Positions 4,592 through 57,776 are shown, counted from the stretch's first letter. The stretch: 64,000 nt of DNA from an uncultured Candidatus Saccharibacteria bacterium (GCA_964561085.1 CAZLNP010000004.1:15580-79579); one strand, 5' to 3'. Program-made: numbers and translations. The notes: generated by a model from the sequence alone, not told the origin.

Positions 4592-6154
4592 TTACTTCTT
4601 TAAGAATATTCCTGCTTTGTTTCCTGTAACAGAGCCAGCAGTAACGGCTTTCTCTCCATTAACCCAAACTTGTTCTATCCCATCTGCGTATTGGTATGGG
4701 TTTTCAACTGATGCTTTAGATCCAATCTTTTGTGGGTCAAACAATACTAGATCGGCTTTAGCATCTACGGCAATTACTCCGCGATCTTTTAAGCCAATTT
4801 TCTTTGCGGGACCAGAAGTTAGTTTTCTAATAGCTTCAGTTAAAGAAATTTCTTTTGATGTATTAACATTTTGTAAGAACTTTGCAGCTGTACCAAAACA
4901 TCTTGGATGAACTAATGTATTTGTGTCAGCTGAAGAGTATCCACTACCATTTGTGGCGATGAACGAAAGTGAATGATTGCAAAAATCATCTACAATTTTT
5001 TCGTCCAAGCTAGTATCAAAAACAAGGATTTCACTTCCACCATTTTCAATTAAATGCAGCAAAGCCTCCTCGCTGGTTGTTCCAAATCCAGCAGCTATTG
5101 TTGAGACAGTTTTACCTGTAACCATAAGCTTCGCTGATGTTGAAGCAATCATTAGCTGAGGAATATCTGTTTCAGAAGTGTTTAACGCGCTTAATATTTT
5201 AGCTCTTTGAGTTGGGTTTTTTAGAAGCGCTAATAATTCTAATCGCCCTCCCATTGTTGCCCACGAAGGGAGATATGTGTATATTGGTTGCCATGTTGAA
5301 GTGTACGGGTATACATCGAAATGAACATTTACGCCTCTATGCCATGCTGCTTCCAGCTCAGCTAAGACATCGGTGACTAACGGCCAATTTTCACGGTGCC
5401 GTATTTTCAAATGAGAAATTTTAACATTGGCTTTAGCTTGCTCTGCTGCTGCTATAACTTCGCGAACACTTTCAATAACACTCCCTGACTCATCTCGCAA
5501 ATGAACAGAAATGTAAGCGTCGTGGTTAGCAACAATCTGGGCAAGCTCGTATAGCTCAACATCAGAAATATTTGCTTCATGAGCGTAAGCGAATCCAGTT
5601 GAAACTCCAAAGGCACCTTCATTAATTGCGTCGTCTGCCATTCTCTTCAAAGTTTGTAATTCATCAACAGAAACAGGAGTTTGCTTATCGCCAATAAGCC
5701 CTCTACGCAAAGTAGAATATCCAACTAGGCTGGCTACATTTGCACCAAACCTCTGAGTACTCATAGATTCGGCAAACTCTTTAAAGCTTCGCCAGTTAAT
5801 ATTTACACCTTCCATGGTGTGCCACTTTTGCAAAGAAAGTAATGATTGCTCAGAAATTAATGGAGCTAAACTTGCTCCAGAATTTCCTACCATGATTGTT
5901 GTGTAGCCTTGCGTAATCATGCTTTCTAAATTTGGACCGTCGAATAAACGCCAATGACTGTCGCTATGGTTTTGAATATCGATGAACCCTGGAGCTAAAA
6001 CTTTTCCCTCAGCATGAATAACTTCTTGCGCTTGGGAGGTTATATCTTGAGATATATTAACAATTCTATCGCCATTAATAGCAACGTCAGCTGTAATTGG
6101 TGCTGACCCTGTTCCATCAATAACGGTAGCTTTTTTAATTAGCAATGAGTACAT
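4592..6154 (-). CDS. Amidohydrolase of the N-acyl-D-amino-acid deacylase (D-aminoacylase) family
   Basis: The N-terminus (ATVIDGTGSAPITADVAINGDRIV...VLAPGFIDIQNHSDSH) matches the D-aminoacylase / N-acyl-D-Glu deacylase pattern. Length is 520 aa. It is wedged between mraY and murD. Confidence 0.6.
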   Translation of the reverse strand: MYSLLIKKATVIDGTGSAPITADVAINGDRIVNISQDITSQAQEVIHAEGKVLAPGFIDIQNHSDSHWRLFDGPNLESMITQGYTTIMVGNSGASLAPLISEQSLLSLQKWHTMEGVNINWRSFKEFAESMSTQRFGANVASLVGYSTLRRGLIGDKQTPVSVDELQTLKRMADDAINEGAFGVSTGFAYAHEANISDVELYELAQIVANHDAYISVHLRDESGSVIESVREVIAAAEQAKANVKISHLKIRHRENWPLVTDVLAELEAAWHRGVNVHFDVYPYTSTWQPIYTYLPSWATMGGRLELLALLKNPTQRAKILSALNTSETDIPQLMIASTSAKLMVTGKTVSTIAAGFGTTSEEALLHLIENGGSEILVFDTSLDEKIVDDFCNHSLSFIATNGSGYSSADTNTLVHPRCFGTAAKFLQNVNTSKEISLTEAIRKLTSGPAKKIGLKDRGVIAVDAKADLVLFDPQKIGSKASVENPYQYADGIEQVWVNGEKAVTAGSVTGNKAGIFLKK

Positions 6155-33147: not shown

Positions 33148-33497
33148 AGGTTCCAAGCAAATCGAATGATCGCCCTAAGCGCGCGAAAGCTGCTGCTGGG
33201 GAGGAAAGTCCGAACACTTAGTTGATAGCCTCTATAGAGTTATTAACAATGGTAGCGGGTAACACCCGTCGAAGGTAACTTCAGAGATGCGAACAGAGAC
33301 GCGTTAATCAGAAATGATTGCGCACCCCACTAAGTTGGTTGGGTGAATCGATATGGAAACATATCGGGTGAAACGGCTAAATTCTTACTTGAGTGCAATG
33401 CCAAATTAGGTAGGCAGCAACGAGGTCGTTGGCAACAACGATCCCAGATAGATGATCATTTAGAAACAGAATTCGGCTTACGAGTTTGCTTGGGACA
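33148..33497 (+). ncRNA. rnpB: RNase P RNA, bacterial type A
   Basis: Conserved P4 5' strand GGAGGAAAGTCCGAAC, J11/12-like GGGTGAAACGG, and the 3' conserved ACAGAATTCGGCTTA. An 11-bp P1 pairs ttccaagcaaa (33151-33161) with tttgcttggga (33485-33495). Confidence 0.8.
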
Positions 33498-42258: not shown

Positions 42259-42332
42259 TGGCACGGGCTGTAGGAATCGAACCTACGCAGCTGGTTTTGG
42301 AGACCAGCGTACTGCCACTATACGAAGCCCGC
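42259..42332 (-). tRNA. tRNA-Trp (anticodon CCA)
   Basis: Reverse complement reads GCGGGCT...CTCCAAA...GGTTCGATTCC...GCCA. The anticodon loop is CTCCAAA and CCA is encoded. A TATAAT box lies just upstream on the minus strand. Confidence 0.85.
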
Positions 42333-42371
42333 AAGTTGCACTACCTATTCAGTCTCATTATAGCAAACCCC

Positions 42372-42388
42372 GCTCGGGGCGGGGCAAT
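42372..42388 (-). terminator. Short GC-rich hairpin (ccccg...cgggg) downstream of rpmG
   Basis: Five-bp GC stem followed by TTTGC on the minus strand. Modest. Confidence 0.35.
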
Positions 42389-42389
42389 A

Positions 42390-42548
42390 CTACTTCTTAG
42401 TTTCTTTGTGAGCTGTCTGAACTTTACAGTGCTTACAAAACTTTTTAATTTCTAGTCTTGCCTGAGTGTTCTTCTTGTTCTTCGTTGTAGCGTAGTTCAA
42501 GTTGTGACACACAGTACATTCTAGATCGATGCGATTATCTTGTGACAT
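42390..42548 (-). CDS. rpmG: 50S ribosomal protein L33 (Zn-ribbon type, 52 aa)
   Basis: Not in the ORF track because it is under 60 aa. Hand-translated: [52 protein letters not shown], with the L33 CxxC...CxxC and TTKNKKNT motifs. Confidence 0.85.
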
Positions 42549-42589
42549 AAAAATTCTTAATTCTACTTAATCTGATAGATTAACTTTTC

Positions 42590-42665
42590 TGGAGCCGGCT
42601 GTCGGACTCGAACCGACCACCTACGGTTTACAAAACCGTTGCTCTACCGGATGAGCTAAGCCGGC
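42590..42665 (-). tRNA. tRNA-Thr (anticodon TGT)
   Basis: Reverse complement GCCGGCTTAGCTCATCCGGTAGAGCAACGGTTTTGTAAACCGT...GGTTCGAGTCC...CCA. The anticodon loop is TTTGTAA. Confidence 0.9.
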
Positions 42666-42765
42666 ATAGTGCTCCCCAAAGGGTGCTAATAGCCTTCTTA
42701 TCAGCTCCAAATTAACTTTAAAATTCTAACATAAACCCTTGTAAAAGTCCAGCCTGTGGATTAAA

Positions 42766-42789
42766 AAAAACACCTTTCGGTGTTTTTTC
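42766..42789 (-). terminator. Intrinsic terminator after tRNA-Tyr (aaaaaacacc-gaaa-ggtgtttttttt on the minus strand)
   Basis: Perfect 10-bp stem followed by a T-run. Confidence 0.7.
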
Positions 42790-42876
42790 TGGTGGGCCGG
42801 ACAGGATTCGAACCTGTGAAGGCATAAAGCCGGGAGATTTACAGTCTCCAGTGTTTGACCGCTCCACAACCGACCC
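42790..42876 (-). tRNA. tRNA-Tyr (anticodon GTA), type II with long variable arm
   Basis: Reverse complement GGGTCGG...GGAGACTGTAAATCTCC...GGCTTTATGCC...GGTTCGAATCC...CCGGCCCACCA. Confidence 0.9.
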
Positions 42877-42911
42877 AAATTCTCAATTAACAGTGCGCTC
42901 TAGCACTAAGC

Positions 42912-42987
42912 TGGAGCCGTTGTGCGGGATCGAACCGCAGACCTTCTCCTTACCATGGAGATGCTCTACCAACTGAGCTACAACGGC
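42912..42987 (-). tRNA. tRNA-Thr (anticodon GGT)
   Basis: Reverse complement GCCGTTGTAGCTCAGTTGGTAGAGCATCTCCATGGTAAGGAGA...GGTTCGATCCC...CCA. The anticodon loop is ATGGTAA. Confidence 0.9.
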
Positions 42988-50976: not shown

Positions 50977-51870
50977 TTAAAATCCAAATCCGTCGTTACT
51001 ATTCGTGTTGTTGTTTACTGGAACATTAGTATCGACTGTTATGTTCAATGGGTCCATCGCATTAGTCACTGGAATTACTTGGACTTTCTTTACCTGAGTG
51101 CGATACAACCCTGGCCATAATTGTTTGTAAGCCCTACGGCCATACGGCACAAGCCTAGATTCATCTCTTTGGCTGACGCCTATAATCTTATCGTTATCAC
51201 CGTACAACAAGAATACTATTCTTGCGGTAGAAATTTGATAAGGACTGTCGTTAATTATTGACCCTTCAGCGATGAAAGTTAGAGGGTTTGATTCATCATA
51301 CAAAAGCGGTTCAGAAGCACGCAACTTTACTTCGGGAATATTAATTTTCTTTTGCCACTTCACGTTGTCTAAAGTAACACTGCCGGAAGCTACGGCACTA
51401 GAACCGCTTTCTATTCTGGCGAAGACTAAATATTTTTTTTCATTTGCAGATAAATATAGTGTCCCGTTTGTTGAATAAATGGTTTTCTTAGAGGCATCTT
51501 GGAAAGTTGCAGTGTAAGTAATCCCTGTCGCTCCTAAATCTAGATTAGGATTACTAACCAAAACTACTCCACTGTAAGTGTTGTTAGGGTTTTTAATTAT
51601 AGTCATATCGCCCACCACTGGCGCCTGAGATGTTTGAAAAGCCGCCTGAGCAGAAAGAGCTTCACGACCATACTTCTGAGCCAAAAACTGCTCAGTGCCA
51701 AACCTTGCAATCAAAAAAGTAGGAATAATTGCTATCGCAAGAGACAGGACTAAAATTCTTTTCCAGTTTGGTAAATTATTTAACTGGGTGACAAAGGAAA
51801 AACCGCCTTCTTGGGCGCCTAATATAGCGCCTTCCACGTTAACTTGAATTGTCTCTTTTATGCCTGACAT
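50977..51870 (-). CDS. Hypothetical bitopic membrane protein (N-in, large extracytoplasmic domain)
   Basis: Single TM (ILVLSLAIAIIPTFLIA) after a ~35-aa cytoplasmic N-terminus. An 11-nt gap to the SEDS gene suggests an operon. Confidence 0.45.
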   Translation of the reverse strand: MSGIKETIQVNVEGAILGAQEGGFSFVTQLNNLPNWKRILVLSLAIAIIPTFLIARFGTEQFLAQKYGREALSAQAAFQTSQAPVVGDMTIIKNPNNTYSGVVLVSNPNLDLGATGITYTATFQDASKKTIYSTNGTLYLSANEKKYLVFARIESGSSAVASGSVTLDNVKWQKKINIPEVKLRASEPLLYDESNPLTFIAEGSIINDSPYQISTARIVFLLYGDNDKIIGVSQRDESRLVPYGRRAYKQLWPGLYRTQVKKVQVIPVTNAMDPLNITVDTNVPVNNNTNSNDGFGF

Positions 51871-51932
51871 ATGGTTGTGTTATGATAAATTCAGATTACT
51901 CTAATTATACCAAAAATACAGCTCTATTCATA

Positions 51933-54900
51933 ATGTTTACCCACCTCCACTGCCATTCTCATTATTCACTTTTAGACGGTCTTTCGAAAGTACCGGATTT
52001 AGTTGCGGCCGCAAAGGCAGACGGTCAGACAAGCATAGCCATTACTGACCATGGCGTTATGTACGGTGCGGTCGACTTCTTTAACGAGTGTAATGCTGCT
52101 GAAATAAAACCAATAATTGGTGTTGAGGCATACATTGCACCACGCTTAATGACCGACAAAGATGGCAAAAGCGATGCAGACTACTTTCACATGACCCTGT
52201 TAGCTGAAAACTACGAGGGCTATTTGAACTTAATGAAGCTGACTACAATAGCGCACGTAGAAGGCTATTACTACAAACCTAGAATTGACCTACCTACTTT
52301 AAAAAAGCATGCAAAAGGATTAATAGCTCTTTCGGGTTGTCCACGAGGACATATTCCCCGAGCGTTCGAGAAAAGCGCCAAAGATGATAGCAGTGCTGCC
52401 GAAGAGCAGTTAAAGATCATGCTCGATATTTTTGGAAAAGATAATTTCTTTTTGGAACTACAACGAAATTCAAATCATGGTGAAGAACTACAACCAAACG
52501 ATAAATTAATTGCGTTAGGTAAAAAGTTTGGCGTCCCTGTAGTTGCAACTCAAGATTGCCACTACATAAATAAAGATGATGCCGAAGCTCAAGACATAAT
52601 GGTTTGTATAGGCACAGGCCGAACTCAGCAAGAAGAAAAAAGGCTAGACATGCGTGGGCATGACTTGAGTCTAAGCACCACCAAGGAAATGGAAGAAAAG
52701 TTTGCAGACATTCCAGAAGCAATTTCTAACACCCAAGTTATTGCGAATAGATGCGATGTAAAGATCCCAATTGGTCAAAGGTTGTTTCCAGAAGTTAAAT
52801 TACCAGCAGGAAAAACTTCCGAAGAACACTTAAGAGATGTTGTGTATGAACTATCCCCGCCTCTCTACGCCGCAGAAGATGGAAAGATTCCAACTGAAAT
52901 TCAAGAACGAATCGATTACGAATTAGATATTATTAACTCTAAAGGATTTGCTCCTTACTTTTTAATGGTGGCTAATATTGTTCGAGGTGCTCACAAATTA
53001 GGGGCAGTAACCAATACTAGAGGGAGTGCTGCGGGCTCCATTGTTGGGAAAATCCTTGCGATTACAAACGTAGACCCACTTTACTATGAATTGCCTTTCG
53101 AGCGCTTCTTAACCAAGCATCGCCCAACCCCTCCAGATATTGACCTGGATATTGCTGATGACAGACGCGATGAAGTTATTGCCTGGATGACCAATGAATA
53201 CGGGCACGACAAAGTCGCTCAGATTATTACTTTTGGAACGATGAAAGCGCGTGCGGTAGTTCGAGATGTAGGAAGAGCGCTAGCGATTCCATATGGTAAA
53301 TGTGATCGTATTGCCAAAATGATTCCACTCGGTAAGCAAGGTTTTGAAATGACTTTAGACAAAGCGATTGGGTTGAGCGAGGAACTTAAAACCATTTATG
53401 AAACCGATGAAGAAACAAGACGGATAATTGATATTGCCAAGAAGCTAGAAGGTTGTGTTCGCCATGCTTCAATTCATGCTGCAGGAATCATCATTACTCC
53501 AACTCCACTAATAGACAACATTCCACTGCAGAAAGAATCAGATGGGGAACGTCTCATTACGCAGTACGACATGTATGCTCTTGATGAAAACATGCAGAGC
53601 AATGCCATCGGTGCTATTAAATTGGATTTACTGGGAATTCGCAATCTTTCTATTTTAGAAAAAGCGGTGAAGTTAATTAAGCTTCGTCACGGCATCGACA
53701 TTGATATTGGCAATCTCCCCCATCCTGATCCAAAAACTTTTGAAATGCTTTCTAAGGGTCTGACTTTTGGAGTTTTTCAACTTGGTTCATCTGGCATGAC
53801 ACGCTACTTAAAAGAACTAAGACCTAGCACTATTTTCGATATTTCAGCGATGGTTGCTTTGTATCGTCCAGGGCCAATGCAATTTATTCCAGACTATATT
53901 GCGCGTAAACATAATGCCAAACTTATTTCCTACTTGGATCCTGAATTAGAAAGAATCCTTAGTCGTACATATGGTATTTTGGTTTATCAAGATGACCTTT
54001 TGATAATCGCTCACGACCTTGCTGGATACACCTGGGAAGAAGTCGACAAATTCCGTAAAGCGGTAGGTAAAAAAATCCCAGAAGAGATGGCTAAGCAAAA
54101 GGAGAAGTTTATTCAAGGATGCGTTAAAACTTCTGGTTGGAGCGAAGCAAAAGCCACTCAAATTTGGACATGGATCGAACCTTTTGCTGCCTATGGATTC
54201 AACAAATCTCACTCTGCTAGCTATGCGCTTGTGGGCTATCAAACCGCTTATTTAAAAGCTAATTACGCCGTTGAGTTTATGGCTGCTGTGATGACTGCAG
54301 AGAGTGGAGATGAAGAAAAAATCTATGCAGCCGTTGAAGAATGTAAAAAAATGGGTATCGCTGTTTTGCCGCCAGACGTAACTGAAAGCTACGGCGACTT
54401 TACAGTAATTGATGAGTATACGATCCGTTTTGGCTTGCGTGCAATTAAGAATTTGAGCTCAGAAGTTGTTAGGAAAATTATTGATTGTCACAAAGAAGGA
54501 ATTAAGTTTGAAAGCTTAGAACATTTTCTTACAGAGAGCTACACAAAAAGTTTCAACAAGCGCTCCTGGGAAGCACTGGCTAAAGCGGGTGCTCTAGATA
54601 GATATGGCGACCGTGCTCAGTTGTTAGCCAACACTGAACGGGTATTAGATTTTCTTCGCGAACATTTTAGGCAAGATAACATTGGTCAAAGTTCTTTGTT
54701 TGGAGCAAGCATGCAAATTGGCAAACTTCAGTTGAAAAACGATGCTCAGCCTGCCAGTACAGAAGAAAAATTAGGTTGGGAAAAAGAGCATCTTGGGTTG
54801 TTTGTATCCGCTCATCCTTTAGATGCCTATCGAAATGTGCTAAAGGGATTTACACCAATAATTAATGTTCCCAACATTAACGACGGCCAAGCTGTATTAA

Positions 54901-55409
54901 TCGGTGGAATCATTTGTAAATACAAAAGAACTCTGACTAAGAAAAATGATCCGATGGCATTTTTCTCAATTCAAGACTTATCTGGAACTACAGAAGTTTT
55001 AGTTTTCCCTAAAGTTATGTTGCAGGCTCTCCCTTTCTTAGATATGGATAGAATTGTACAAGTGAAAGGTAGGATCTCGGACAAAGACGGTGAAAGAAAG
55101 ATTATTGCAGAGGAAATTAAAGATATTGTTAGTGATGAACTTTACACCATGGCTCTTTCTGAAATGGAAAAGAACAAACAAATTGTTATTCACATGCATA
55201 ACATTCACAACACTGAGGCATTGAATCAAATTAAGGATTTACTGATTGCCAATCCTGGTAATGCGCAGGTCTATTTAAGTGTAGGAAGTGCGGGGGCAAG
55301 CAAAACCATAAAAACTCAATCGCAAATTAGAGTAAGTAAAGAGCTACTGCAGAAGCTTCGTGATGTCCCTGACGTTGTTACTATTACAGATTCAATTTCC
55401 GATTCTTAG
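51933..55409 (+). CDS. dnaE: DNA polymerase III alpha subunit
   Basis: PHP domain start (MFTHLHCHSHYSLLDG), the pol-beta-like catalytic core and a C-terminal OB fold. The start is set at the internal Met to match the canonical N-terminus and avoid the upstream gene. Confidence 0.95.
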   Translation: MFTHLHCHSHYSLLDGLSKVPDLVAAAKADGQTSIAITDHGVMYGAVDFFNECNAAEIKPIIGVEAYIAPRLMTDKDGKSDADYFHMTLLAENYEGYLNLMKLTTIAHVEGYYYKPRIDLPTLKKHAKGLIALSGCPRGHIPRAFEKSAKDDSSAAEEQLKIMLDIFGKDNFFLELQRNSNHGEELQPNDKLIALGKKFGVPVVATQDCHYINKDDAEAQDIMVCIGTGRTQQEEKRLDMRGHDLSLSTTKEMEEKFADIPEAISNTQVIANRCDVKIPIGQRLFPEVKLPAGKTSEEHLRDVVYELSPPLYAAEDGKIPTEIQERIDYELDIINSKGFAPYFLMVANIVRGAHKLGAVTNTRGSAAGSIVGKILAITNVDPLYYELPFERFLTKHRPTPPDIDLDIADDRRDEVIAWMTNEYGHDKVAQIITFGTMKARAVVRDVGRALAIPYGKCDRIAKMIPLGKQGFEMTLDKAIGLSEELKTIYETDEETRRIIDIAKKLEGCVRHASIHAAGIIITPTPLIDNIPLQKESDGERLITQYDMYALDENMQSNAIGAIKLDLLGIRNLSILEKAVKLIKLRHGIDIDIGNLPHPDPKTFEMLSKGLTFGVFQLGSSGMTRYLKELRPSTIFDISAMVALYRPGPMQFIPDYIARKHNAKLISYLDPELERILSRTYGILVYQDDLLIIAHDLAGYTWEEVDKFRKAVGKKIPEEMAKQKEKFIQGCVKTSGWSEAKATQIWTWIEPFAAYGFNKSHSASYALVGYQTAYLKANYAVEFMAAVMTAESGDEEKIYAAVEECKKMGIAVLPPDVTESYGDFTVIDEYTIRFGLRAIKNLSSEVVRKIIDCHKEGIKFESLEHFLTESYTKSFNKRSWEALAKAGALDRYGDRAQLLANTERVLDFLREHFRQDNIGQSSLFGASMQIGKLQLKNDAQPASTEEKLGWEKEHLGLFVSAHPLDAYRNVLKGFTPIINVPNINDGQAVLIGGIICKYKRTLTKKNDPMAFFSIQDLSGTTEVLVFPKVMLQALPFLDMDRIVQVKGRISDKDGERKIIAEEIKDIVSDELYTMALSEMEKNKQIVIHMHNIHNTEALNQIKDLLIANPGNAQVYLSVGSAGASKTIKTQSQIRVSKELLQKLRDVPDVVTITDSISDS

Positions 55410-55447
55410 CGCAACTGGCAAAATTAACCACTGCAACTATTTGAATT

Positions 55448-55475
55448 TTGACCTTTTTTAGGATTGCGCTATAAT
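55448..55475 (+). promoter_or_regulatory. Promoter: TTGACC, 16-nt spacer, TATAAT (a second TATAAT follows 5 nt later)
   Basis: Direct read. Faces thrS but is separated from it by a terminator and about 300 nt. Confidence 0.5.
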
Positions 55476-55482
55476 TAAAGTA

Positions 55483-55659
55483 TAATATCGAGTGTCGATG
55501 CGACTACCAACCGCGGAGCTTGAGTGAACTAAATAAAAAAGTCCCCATTCCAATAGTTGGAATCGGGAGAACCGGGACGGAATCGCCTAACTAAAATGGC
55601 CCTGGAAATCGCTACTTGAATTAAAACTCAAGTGTTGATTTCCAGGGCTATATTTTTTT
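55483..55659 (+). ncRNA. Candidate ~175-nt structured RNA or leader element of unidentified family
   Basis: Runs from the promoter to an intrinsic terminator (gccctggaaatc...gatttccagggc, then TATATTTTTTT at 55599-55659). There is a nested hairpin (gtcccc...attccaa-tag-ttggaat...gggac). The 5' segment cttgagtg can alternatively pair with actcaag inside the terminator loop, giving a possible antiterminator alternative. Confidence 0.35.
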
Positions 55660-55669
55660 CTAGCGCTAG

Positions 55670-55909
55670 CTAAAAAATTGTGACCGCTCTCCGAGCAAGA
55701 CGGTTTTGCTTCTTGCTATCAAAAATGTCGTCTGATCGGTTTGATGACTTCCAGGACATCGGTTGAACTGATCCGTCTCCACGACAGCTACTGCAACCAA
55801 AATGATTATCTCTATCTTGTGGACATCGGGATAGAACCCCGATAGGGTAATCATCACCAAAAACTAAACTTTTTTGCATTTCCGTTCCGGAAGCACCTGC
55901 ATCTGCCAT
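55670..55909 (-). CDS. Possible small Cys-containing protein (79 aa from the ATG; the ORF track extends to a TTG at 55915)
   Basis: ORF MADAGASGTEMQKSLVFGDDYPIGVLSRCPQDRDNHFGCSSCRGDGS... with GAAGGAG about 13 nt upstream of the ATG. The bidirectional terminator at 55599-55659 lies just downstream. No family recognized; it could be a spurious ORF inside the thrS 5' region. Confidence 0.25.
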   Translation of the reverse strand: MADAGASGTEMQKSLVFGDDYPIGVLSRCPQDRDNHFGCSSCRGDGSVQPMSWKSSNRSDDIFDSKKQNRLARRAVTIF

Positions 55910-55970
55910 AAGCAATTAACCACTCCTTCAATAAATTTACGAGTAATCATATTAACGAATTTTAACCAAT

Positions 55971-57776
55971 ATGTCAACACCTAACGAAAAACTACATAAC
56001 GTCCGTCATTCACTAGCTCATCTTTTAGCTAGCTCTGTCTTGGAAATGTTTCCAGATGCAAAGCTTGGAGTTGGTCCTGTAATTGAAACAGGATTCTACT
56101 ACGACTTTCTTTTGTCTCGCCCATTGACTCTTGAGGATTTGCCTAAGCTCCAAAAAAGAATGCGTGAGCTTGCAAAATCTAAGCTTGCCTTTGAACGCGA
56201 AGAACTATCTTTTGCTGATGCTTCAAAGTTCTTTTCTGAAAAAGATCAACCTTTCAAAGTCGAGCTGATTTCTGATATTGAAAAGTTTGGCACTTCTAAA
56301 GCTGGAGCTACCGATGCACAAAGTGACGAATTAGGTGCGGAAGCAAATCCGAACGGAACTGTTAGTCTTTACAAAACCGGTGAATTCATAGATCTATGCC
56401 GTGGTGGTCATGTGGAGAATACTTCTGAAATTGATCCAGATAGTTTTGTGTTAGATAAAATTTCAGGAGCATACTGGCGCGGAGATCAAGCAAACCCTCA
56501 AATGCAACGCATTTACGGATTAGCTTTCGAATCAAAAGATGAATTAGTTGCTCACATAGAATTGCGAGCTGAGCTAGAAAAACGAGATCATCGAATTGTA
56601 GGACCACAATTAGGACTTTTCTTATTCCATGAATATGCCCCAGGAATTCCTTTCTACCAGCCTAAAGGAACAGTAGTGCGAAATGAGTTAGAGAAGTTTG
56701 TCCGAGAAGTTTCTTACGGCGAAGGCTACAGCGAAGTGCGTTTACCTCAACTCTTTGACTCAGAACTATTTAAAACTTCTGGTCATTGGGAACACTACAA
56801 AGACGATATGTTTACTTTAGAATCCGAAAATAAAACTTTTGGATTAAAGCCAATGAACTGTCCTGGTCACATGTTGTATTTCAAACAAGGACTCTATTCA
56901 TACAAAGACCTACCGCTAAGGCTTTCTGAAATGACTACTTTGTACAGAAACGAACTATCCGGAACACTGTCCGGCTTAACTCGAGTTAGAGCATTTGCAC
57001 AAGATGACTCACATATCTTTGCAACTCAAGACCAAGTTAAAGATGAAGTTGCTGCTTTGCTTAAAAAAGTAACTGAAGTATATAGTGTGTTCGGAATGCA
57101 AATCGAACAAGTCACAATAGGCACCAAACCTGAGCAATCTTTAGGTACTAAAGAAGAATGGGCTCCCGCTGAGACAGCTTTGAAAGATGCTTTAGACGAA
57201 GTGGGCTGGAAGTATGAAATTGAAGAGGGCGACGGAGCTTTTTACGGACCGAAAATTGATATGCGTATAAAGGATGTGCTTGGTCGCTACTGGCAACTTG
57301 CTACTATACAGTTAGATTTCCAAATGCCTCAACGATTTGGTTTAGAGTATGTCTCCAACGATGGCACACGTAAAACTCCAATAGTTATCCACAGAGCTAT
57401 TTTAGGCTCATTTGAGCGCTTTATGGCTATTATCATCGAGCAATACGCAGGCGCGCTACCTACTTGGTTAGCGCCAGTACAAGCAACCATCGTCCCAGTT
57501 TCTGAAAAGCAGAATGAGTTTGCTGAAAAAGTTTTGGCAGAAATTAAATCCTCAATTCCATTAGCGCGCGTTGATCTAGATGTTCGCAGCGAATCAATGG
57601 GTAAAAGAATTCGCGAAGCTTCTAAGCAAAAGGTTCCTTACATCTTAGTTGTCGGCGATAAAGAAATAGAAGCAAATTCTGTCTCTGTTCGTGGCCGAAA
57701 CGATGAAGACCTTGGCACAATGGAAATTTCTGCGTTCATTGAAAAGATGAAAGAAGAAATCACCAACCGCAAGTAG
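55971..57776 (+). CDS. thrS: Threonine--tRNA ligase (without the N-terminal TGS domain)
   Basis: Begins at the editing-domain motif (RHSLAHLLA...GPVIETGFYYDF). Class II motifs 1-3 and a C-terminal anticodon-binding domain follow. At 601 aa it is shorter than the ~640-aa canonical protein. Confidence 0.95.
   Translation: MSTPNEKLHNVRHSLAHLLASSVLEMFPDAKLGVGPVIETGFYYDFLLSRPLTLEDLPKLQKRMRELAKSKLAFEREELSFADASKFFSEKDQPFKVELISDIEKFGTSKAGATDAQSDELGAEANPNGTVSLYKTGEFIDLCRGGHVENTSEIDPDSFVLDKISGAYWRGDQANPQMQRIYGLAFESKDELVAHIELRAELEKRDHRIVGPQLGLFLFHEYAPGIPFYQPKGTVVRNELEKFVREVSYGEGYSEVRLPQLFDSELFKTSGHWEHYKDDMFTLESENKTFGLKPMNCPGHMLYFKQGLYSYKDLPLRLSEMTTLYRNELSGTLSGLTRVRAFAQDDSHIFATQDQVKDEVAALLKKVTEVYSVFGMQIEQVTIGTKPEQSLGTKEEWAPAETALKDALDEVGWKYEIEEGDGAFYGPKIDMRIKDVLGRYWQLATIQLDFQMPQRFGLEYVSNDGTRKTPIVIHRAILGSFERFMAIIIEQYAGALPTWLAPVQATIVPVSEKQNEFAEKVLAEIKSSIPLARVDLDVRSESMGKRIREASKQKVPYILVVGDKEIEANSVSVRGRNDEDLGTMEISAFIEKMKEEITNRK

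Follow-up and report, generated by a model that had tools for sequence, protein, structure and literature searches.

Of the RNAs that sense another RNA, T-boxes are the best understood. Structural models of these riboswitches assume that the UGGN:NCCA pairing with the tRNA 3′ end is stacked directly on helix A1 of the antiterminator, and that T-boxes of the transcriptional type possess a long Stem I, by which the tRNA elbow is captured fast enough to beat RNA polymerase. Stem II and the Stem IIA/B pseudoknot, with its F-box (CCGUUA), are missing just in glycine T-boxes. In Escherichia coli, thrS is controlled by a translational operator, a mimic of the tRNA-Thr anticodon arm that is bound by ThrRS.

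A 2020 review describes the UGGN sequence abutting helix A1 as invariable in all known T-boxes (PMC7583486). Transcriptional T-boxes generally need a long Stem I, and ultrashort Stem I elements are found in translational, mostly actinobacterial T-boxes (PMC7583486). In translational T-boxes, a short Stem I is compensated by Stem II together with Stem IIA/B (PMC11297988). Among the ~23,000 entries of TBDB, 48 have no recognisable UGGN (PMC7778990). A search of the accessible literature for T-boxes of CPR, Patescibacteria or Saccharibacteria found no paper.

The element described here was found in a 64,000-nucleotide stretch of DNA (the window) from an uncultured Patescibacteria (CPR) genome, in the spacer that separates dnaE from thrS. 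Comparison with related loci indicates that it very probably represents a reduced T-box leader, ~175 nt in length, which would control thrS by transcription attenuation. An initial annotation of the window had suggested that thrS might be regulated through a modified form of one of the known leader mechanisms. This suggestion is borne out through the relatives, which point to a T-box derivative.

The dnaE–thrS spacer and its relatives

The dnaE–thrS spacer of the window is 561 nt long, and the features mapped in and around it are collected in Table 1. For comparison, 80 thrS loci were retrieved, and the 420 nt 5′ of thrS were read in the closest 21 (L010–L030). In the genome collection, the nearest thrS loci come from MAGs that bear the labels Candidatus Doudnabacteria, "Saccharibacteria" or Patescibacteria group. 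A separate four-strain alignment of the spacer comprised the window, L004, L005 and L008. Most of L010–L030 carry a specifier hairpin, a T-box sequence and a terminator in the same order as the window.

The element is linked to thrS: it lies 5′ of the gene and on the same strand in the window and in ~20 relatives. In L013, L014, L019–L025, L029, L144, L147 and L189, the leader is the direct neighbour of thrS and lies ~40–110 nt from its ATG. In the window, 311 nt (55660–55970) separate the terminator from thrS and contain an antisense gene. A pattern scan of metagenomes returned at least 120 stretches, nearly all of which were chance matches in high-GC DNA, and it carries little information on the abundance of the variant; among the metagenome matches listed, the real elements are L144, L147, L169, L178, L189 and perhaps L156. 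No other discriminator base or codon occurred among the metagenome pattern matches listed, and no second T-box-like element was found elsewhere in the 64-kb window.

Table 1. Coordinates of the leader, its neighbouring genes and its putative ligand, counted from the first nucleotide of the window.
Feature	Coordinates	Strand	Basis
dnaE	51849–55409	+	Pfam
Leader RNA promoter: −35 TTGACC (55448–53), 16-nt spacer, −10 TATAAT (55470–75)	55448–55475	+	11/12 consensus positions
Ultrashort Stem I with flanks GA...GGAG	55497–55518	+	Covariation, RNAalifold
A-rich linker CUUGAGUGAACUAAAUAAAAAAG	55519–55541	+	Sequence conserved
Stem III-like hairpin, directly 5′ of the T-box sequence	55542–55568	+	Folding
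Antiterminator (discriminator core)	55572–55605	+	Covariation, folding
Intrinsic terminator: hairpin 55597–55650 (15+7 pairs), A-U-A, then U7 (55653–59)	55597–55659	+	−33.6 kcal/mol
Small protein gene, 79 aa (81 aa if the start is TTG 55915)	55670–55909	−	Conservation, dN/dS
Small-ORF promoter: −35 TTGACA (55977–72), 17-nt spacer, −10 TAATAT (55954–49)	55949–55977	−	10/12 consensus
thrS, threonyl-tRNA synthetase, 601 aa	55971–57776	+	Pfam tRNA-synt_2b, HGTP_anticodon, tRNA_SAD
tRNA-Thr(GGU) gene, putative ligand; U73 discriminator, CCA encoded	42912–42987	−	Anticodon GGU complementary to ACC

Promoter, transcript and terminator

The promoter after dnaE and the ~175-nt RNA with a strong terminator, both reported in the initial annotation, are confirmed by the promoter match and terminator stability given in Table 1 and by the fold of 55480–55670, which has a z-score of −5.3 against shuffled copies (none of 200 shuffles was as good). 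Both promoter hexamers are invariant in the four strains, and the spacer and the upstream bases vary. Transcription would start at ~55482. A −10 element is found 5′ of Stem I at a comparable distance in the relatives.

The terminator was missed by a simple consensus scan because its stem and loop are larger than the limits of that scan. In the minus-strand orientation, AUUUUAG comes after this hairpin, which probably serves both strands by also ending the transcript of the small ORF.

Stem I presents a threonine codon

Stem I pairs U55499–A55503 with C55511–G55515 and displays a 7-nt terminal loop, CUACCAA, at 55504–10. Within this loop, the specifier ACC (55506–08) is a threonine codon, and the A that follows it (A55509) is the purine typical of T-box specifiers. 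Across 22 sequences, the loop conforms to C(U/C)ACCA(A/C) on a stem of 4–5 bp, with ACCA invariant in all 22. The stem itself varies in a compensatory manner (GCGA/UCGU, ACAG/CUGU, GUAG/CUAC, UCGG/CCGA and CUGG/CCAG): 89% of cells are paired, all five pairs show changes on both sides, and 26 cells are double changes. None of 500 shuffles reached the observed covariation, and slid frames were only 27–46% paired. RNAalifold, run without manual parsing, independently predicted both Stem I and helix A2 of the antiterminator. The earlier statement that no Thr specifier loop could be found is therefore wrong, as ACC sits in the covarying hairpin loop at 55504–55510.

The conserved sequences flanking Stem I, UGA...GGAG(CUU), are similar to the Rfam T-box consensus gaUGA...GGAGcuu around the Stem I base, the site of the GA (K-turn) motif of the family, and may form a K-turn-like base. 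A long Stem I with an internal specifier loop, an AG bulge and a distal platform for the tRNA elbow is absent from the window, where a stem of 4–5 bp leaves no room for such a platform.

The same hairpin might be read as part of a leader-peptide attenuator, with ribosomes stalling on AUG CGA CUA CCA ACC GCG GAG CUU GAG UGA, or as an operator of the E. coli type bound by ThrRS. In the window, AUG 55499 does open a 9-codon ORF with one Thr codon, and the 7-nt loop resembles an anticodon loop. However, what the loop presents is the codon ACC and none of the Thr anticodons (GGU, UGU, CGU), and it is thus the complement of a tRNA mimic; either reading would also leave the UCC-complementary bulge of the antiterminator unexplained. 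Leader-peptide attenuation was rejected, as short ORFs over Stem I are inconsistent in frame and presence among relatives: the mini-ORF is absent or frame-shifted in L014, L020, L029 and L144, and a run of Thr codons is never present. Together, these two readings are scarcely credible in comparison with a T-box-type specifier hairpin.

Linker and Stem III

Downstream of Stem I, the linker of the window (55519–41) contains no supported helix, Stem II, F-box or Stem IIA/B pseudoknot when compared with the linkers of relatives. A Stem II-like helix (GCUU/AAGU) was considered and rejected, the pairing not being consistently kept among the relatives. In L020, L021, L024 and L029, the linker contains ACGC...GCGUUAAAG, which corresponds to a pseudoknot of the IIA/B type with an F-box (GCGUUA). 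The Stem III-like hairpin that follows the linker is matched by a hairpin of different sequence at the same place in L010–L013, L017, L026, L030, L144, L147 and L178.

The antiterminator and its two bulge classes

In the window, helix A1 pairs CCGGG (55572–76) with CCUGG (55601–05), and helix A2 pairs GCC (55585–87) with GGC (55598–600) around a loop at 55588–97. Between the 5′ strands of A1 and A2 lies a bulge of 8 nt, ACGGAAUC (55577–84), in which GGA (55579–81) is complementary to U73-C74-C75 of the tRNA. Specifier codon, anticodon and discriminator base all match. The initial annotation found no canonical T-box and overlooked a degenerate version of the T-box sequence, CGGGACGGAAUCGCC, at 55573–55587.

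The segment 55569–55606, folded in isolation, adopts exactly the proposed antiterminator at −8.8 kcal/mol. It is far weaker than the terminator (−33.6 kcal/mol), which is expected where the ON state needs a ligand. Among sequences with the variant bulge, 90% of antiterminator cells are paired, compared with 17–68% in slid controls. When both bulge classes are taken together (21 sequences), pairs 2–6 of A1 are paired in 21/21, with C-G/U-A swaps, and A2 is paired in 19–21/21, with GC/UA/AU/CG swaps; the MAFFT alignment of the two classes misplaced a gap, and this combined count was made by hand. The helices of the element thus covary in ~20 relatives.

The relatives fall into two classes according to their bulge. 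The canonical form, UUUGGG-UGGAACC-A2...A2′-CCCAAA, is found in L015, L019–L025, L028 and L029, with A as the N opposite U73 and a ThrS identity of 56–67%. The variant form, C(U/C)GGG-ACGGAA(U/A/C)C-A2...A2′-CC(C/U)(A/G)G, is found in the window, L010–L014, L017, L026 and L030. Its 8-nt bulge, ACGGAAHC, also occurs in five or six metagenome contigs (L144, L147, L169, L178, L189 and perhaps L156). The variant is carried by the window and ~15 others, and the ThrS proteins of these relatives are 52–88% identical to that of the window.

The canonical T-box sequence AGGGUGGNACCGCG, with a 7-nt bulge in which 5′-UGGN-3′ abuts A1 and N pairs with the discriminator base, does not occur in the window. 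The bulge of the window may still read the tRNA 3′ end through its GGA. In such a complex, a C would stand opposite A76, and the mini-helix formed with the 3′ end would be separated from A1 by one additional A. With no U for A76 and this A before A1, any sensing of aminoacylation would have a geometry unlike that of all T-boxes studied.

The 5′ arm of the terminator always includes the A2′ and A1′ strands of the antiterminator, and the two structures are therefore mutually exclusive. In the relatives, a terminator with its U-run likewise overlaps the 3′ strand of the antiterminator. The initial annotation had located the alternative pairing elsewhere, between the 5′ segment cttgagtg and the terminator loop. 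That pairing is present in the window but differs from the antiterminator that is conserved (55572–55605). As a switch it was rejected: neither L010 nor L011 retains it, it reaches no further than the apex of a hairpin of 22 pairs, and it would leave the basal 15 bp of the terminator intact.

Assignment to the T-box family

Searched against Rfam at the gathering threshold, the whole window gave nothing for the leader region. At E ≤ 10, the interval 55350–56050 gave chance hairpin matches to miRNA and snoRNA models, and no match to SRP, 6S, tmRNA or T-box models. The T-box model RF00230 likewise gave no match at E ≤ 10 in the window or in L029, and 12 relatives searched at the gathering threshold gave none either; as a positive control, the Bacillus thrS leader (L074, 4515–4737) was detected with 83.7 bits (E = 1.5e-18). 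Neither an Rfam match to a housekeeping RNA nor a lack of conservation in relatives, the two outcomes named beforehand as speaking against a regulatory element, was seen.

A covariance model built from eight relatives with the canonical bulge (R1) found its best match in the 64-kb window at 55494, with 26 bits and an E-value of ~4e-4. R1 placed its antiterminator onto Stem III of the window, and its match therefore supports homology for Stem I and for the linker alone.

Several features of the family are found in the window: a leader position before an aminoacyl-tRNA synthetase gene on the same strand, a cognate specifier followed by a purine, and a two-helix antiterminator opposed to a terminator. 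A long Stem I, Stem II with Stem IIA/B, a UGGN bulge and a score with RF00230 are lacking. A switch of the class II actinobacterial type, in which the Shine–Dalgarno sequence is sequestered, is also absent, as the competing hairpin ends in U7 at 311 nt from thrS. Judged from sequence and predicted structure, the element clearly belongs to the T-boxes in descent and in logic, but departs from several defining sequence and structure features of the family. The proposed T-box derivative is recognisable solely through comparison with its relatives.

A small gene nested antisense in the leader

The possibility that the 79-aa minus-strand ORF at 55670–55909 is real had been raised in the initial annotation as an alternative to the regulation of thrS. 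The reality of the ORF is supported. Homologues of the small ORF share 86% and 76% identity with it, one of them with an in-frame deletion of 5 codons, and exact or close copies occur in other assemblies. The dN/dS ratio of the ORF is 0.29–0.36, with a dS higher than in thrS. A GGAG lies at 55926–55923 on the minus strand. By its pattern of conservation, the ORF is a real gene. It is no alternative to an element acting on thrS, as both features co-exist in the spacer.

The small protein contains the motif C-x2-D-x3-H-x2-CSSCRGDG, a degenerate form of the CxxC...CxxCxGxG zinc-finger motif. ORFs at the same place in L010, L011 and L012 have in common YP.G...C-x2-(C/D)...C-x2-C-x-G-x-G, a zinc-knuckle motif like that of DnaJ. 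The L011 ORF reads CPNC...CSHCKGDG, and the ORF of the window has a single CSSCRGDG, with CPQD in place of CxxC. A Pfam search with the small ORF gave no match at E ≤ 0.01, and an exhaustive profile search of 1.8 billion representative proteins added just four small relatives, besides one weak match to a repeat protein. A type I toxin–antitoxin pair was considered and rejected: in place of a small hydrophobic membrane toxin, the ORF encodes a hydrophilic protein of 79 aa with many Cys, Gly and Asp residues and no hydrophobic stretch, and its transcript overlaps the terminated RNA just in the terminator hairpin.

The promoter of the small ORF faces that of the T-box leader, and its −35 hexamer overlaps codons 1–3 of thrS. 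The promoter block is invariant in the four strains, and its hexamers and their spacing are repeated in L010 and L011. The invariant block 5′ of thrS is explained by the presence of this minus-strand promoter. The window, L010, L011 and L012 are the only loci in which the small gene and its promoter lie between terminator and thrS. In L013, L014, L019–L025 and L029, the terminator lies 40–110 nt from thrS and the spacer is empty, from which it follows that the small gene is a lineage-specific insertion into the leader.

Expression of thrS and proposed mechanism

A sigma-70 consensus scan of the plus strand from 55660 to 55970, which weak or non-sigma70 promoter types may escape, found no promoter for thrS, the best candidate matching 4/6 positions in each hexamer. 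No recognisable Shine–Dalgarno sequence precedes thrS. As no separate promoter for thrS was found, read-through to thrS must cross the small gene antisense, and transcription of thrS in the lineage of the window would depend on this read-through.

As the initial annotation had also proposed, the leader might instead be an independent small RNA. Such an RNA of ~175 nt would act in trans and be unrelated to thrS control, perhaps as a sponge for a tRNA or by regulating other mRNAs. Its own strong promoter and strong terminator, and its distance from thrS in the genome of the window, would fit such an RNA. However, a small RNA of this kind has no need of an antiterminator that is conserved, covaries and stands in competition with the RNA's own terminator. 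Furthermore, most relatives carry the element directly before thrS on the same strand, with a codon that always fits thrS. Because the switch elements are all conserved and no other thrS promoter was found, this explanation is not favoured and is regarded as very improbable.

A further explanation retains the T-box and uncouples it from thrS in the window: thrS would have its own unrecognised promoter, and read-through would act mainly as an antisense or interference switch on the 79-aa gene. Consistent with this explanation, a small gene with a strong promoter intervenes just in the window and in L010, L011 and L012, the terminator lies ~10–20 nt from the stop codon of the ORF, so that read-through is wholly antisense to it, and CPR promoters may evade a sigma-70 consensus scan. 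Yet the interval before thrS lacks even a moderate plus-strand promoter, its conserved block is accounted for by the minus-strand promoter, and the switch elements, including the Thr specifier, are all still conserved, as expected if thrS is the target. Such uncoupling is considered unlikely, and control of thrS by attenuation is the preferred reading.

It is proposed that attenuation at thrS would proceed as follows. The GGU anticodon of tRNA-Thr would pair with ACC, which is displayed in an anticodon-like manner in the 7-nt terminal loop of Stem I (55499–55515). The 3′ end of uncharged tRNA, U73-C74-C75(-A76), would pair with GGA of the bulge and thereby stabilise the weak antiterminator, such that binding of the tRNA would also sense its charging state. 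With sufficient threonine and charged tRNA-Thr, the terminator would form and the ~175-nt RNA would be released at ~55655–59. When threonine is limiting, the antiterminator would be held, and the polymerase would read the 79-aa gene antisense, meet its promoter head-on and enter thrS. Induction of thrS should thus lower expression of the small gene, through either transcriptional interference or antisense RNA, and leader and small gene would be in interplay. If this is true, one tRNA-sensing event would set thrS and the small gene in opposite directions.

Implications

It is tentatively suggested, as a reading that may well not hold, that a lineage of Patescibacteria possesses a distinct class of T-box: transcriptional without an elbow platform, Stem II or Stem IIA/B, with the tRNA 3′ end read by the 8-nt bulge ACGGAAHC, and, in the sub-lineage of the window, arranged head-on against a small zinc-finger gene. 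The element of the window and its ~15 variant relatives retain the switch and break both supposed universals of T-boxes, the UGGN bulge and the long Stem I of the transcriptional type, without a compensating Stem II domain. If functional, they would represent the smallest natural transcriptional T-boxes; in some relatives, the part from Stem I through the antiterminator spans only ~80 nt. Such elements would, moreover, constitute a natural experiment in the sensing of tRNA 3′ ends.

For genome annotation, the comparison suggests that searches with RF00230, on which TBDB is based, overlook riboswitch regulation in CPR genomes. A gene nested antisense between a riboswitch and its target is an unusual regulatory layout.

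Comparison with known systems

The class I T-box (RF00230), as in Bacillus thrS, shares with the window its position in the leader of a synthetase gene, a specifier of ACC followed by a purine, and the UGA...GGAGCUU flanks of Stem I. Stem III and an antiterminator of two helices and a bulge that competes with an intrinsic terminator are likewise common to both. In contrast to class I, Stem I of the window comprises 4–5 bp without an internal specifier loop or S-turn, AG bulge or distal-loop platform; neither Stem II nor Stem IIA/B is present, and the element is invisible to RF00230. The bulge is also different: it measures 8 nt (ACGGAAHC), has a C where class I has the U for pairing with A76, and carries one additional A beside A1. 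Furthermore, the window has a convergent gene nested between riboswitch and target.

With the class II T-boxes of actinobacterial ileS, in which Stem I is ultrashort or intermediate, the window shares a truncated Stem I without an elbow platform and the core design of the discriminator; this comparison was drawn through the descriptions in reviews (PMC7583486, PMC11297988). The actinobacterial elements retain Stem II, Stem IIA/B and UGGN and sequester the Shine–Dalgarno sequence, whereas the window has a terminator with a U-tract and a changed bulge. The glyQS T-box is similarly transcriptional, possesses neither Stem II nor Stem IIA/B, and has the same order of Stem I, linker, Stem III and antiterminator. 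Unlike the window, glyQS keeps a long Stem I with an elbow platform and a canonical UGGN bulge (PMC11297988).

The operator of E. coli thrS shares with the leader of the window thrS as the target, a putative one in the window, and a hairpin loop of 7 nt. The two differ in what this loop presents and in how the signal is passed on: the loop of the window displays a codon and not an anticodon, no ribosome-binding site is adjacent to it, and a switch between terminator and antiterminator is present.

Structured RNAs and coding features of the window

The window's bacterial RNase P RNA (class A) reaches no more than 114.6 bits with its Rfam model, whose gathering score is 100; this illustrates the divergence of this genome's structured RNAs from Rfam models. 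Both threonine tRNAs encoded in the window (GGU and UGU) carry U73 and an encoded CCA. The 297-aa ORF that lies just upstream of dnaE overlaps the annotated TTG start of that gene by 22 nt, and its product matched no Pfam family at E ≤ 0.01.

Features located in the window
Feature	Position	Strand
RNase P RNA, class A	33154-33496	+
tRNA cluster: Thr(GGU), Tyr(GUA), Thr(UGU), Trp(CCA)	42259-42987	-
297-aa ORF	50977-51870	-
Small-ORF promoter	55949-55977	
thrS start	55971	

The promoters of the T-box and of the 79-aa small ORF that separates its terminator from thrS are convergent, lie ~470 bp apart and share one hairpin terminator between them. Codons 1–3 of thrS (ATG TCA ACA) form the −35 hexamer of the small-ORF promoter. 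No Shine-Dalgarno sequence was found for thrS in the window. A profile built on the small ORF returned a single match that was not itself a small protein, P0008 (827 aa), in which five separate stretches match the CxxCxGxG region; P0008 presumably contains zinc-knuckle repeats.

Variation of the thrS leader among related loci

In three thrS loci from close relatives (L016, L018 and L027; 67–69% ThrS identity), the 420 nt preceding thrS contain nothing resembling a T-box; at least in L016, a normal Shine-Dalgarno sequence precedes the gene instead. Because these loci lack the element, the thrS leader must have been repeatedly lost or replaced within the clade.

Extremely small T-boxes are found upstream of thrS in L019 (4835-4915), L022, L023, L025 and L028. 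Each comprises Stem I, a linker of 24–25 nt (GAGCUUCAAACAA...AAAGU) and a canonical antiterminator (UUUGGG-UGGAACC-GUUC..GAAC-CCCAAA), without Stem II, IIA/B or Stem III, and is ~80 nt long when counted from Stem I through A1′. This may be the smallest natural layout of a transcriptional T-box.

In L017, L026, L030, L144, L147 and L189 the linker contains, between Stem I and Stem III, an additional hairpin with the conserved apical sequence UUCUAGAG, which may serve as a substitute tRNA contact. The linker reaches ~190 nt in L026 and L156.

In a further four loci (L020, L021, L024 and L029; ~4830-4950), the ultrashort Stem I shared with the window's leader is joined to ACGC...hairpin(GCGUUAAAG). 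The latter is an IIA/B-like pseudoknot plus F-box, without Stem II proper, and leaders of this form are intermediate between canonical T-boxes and the form found in the window.
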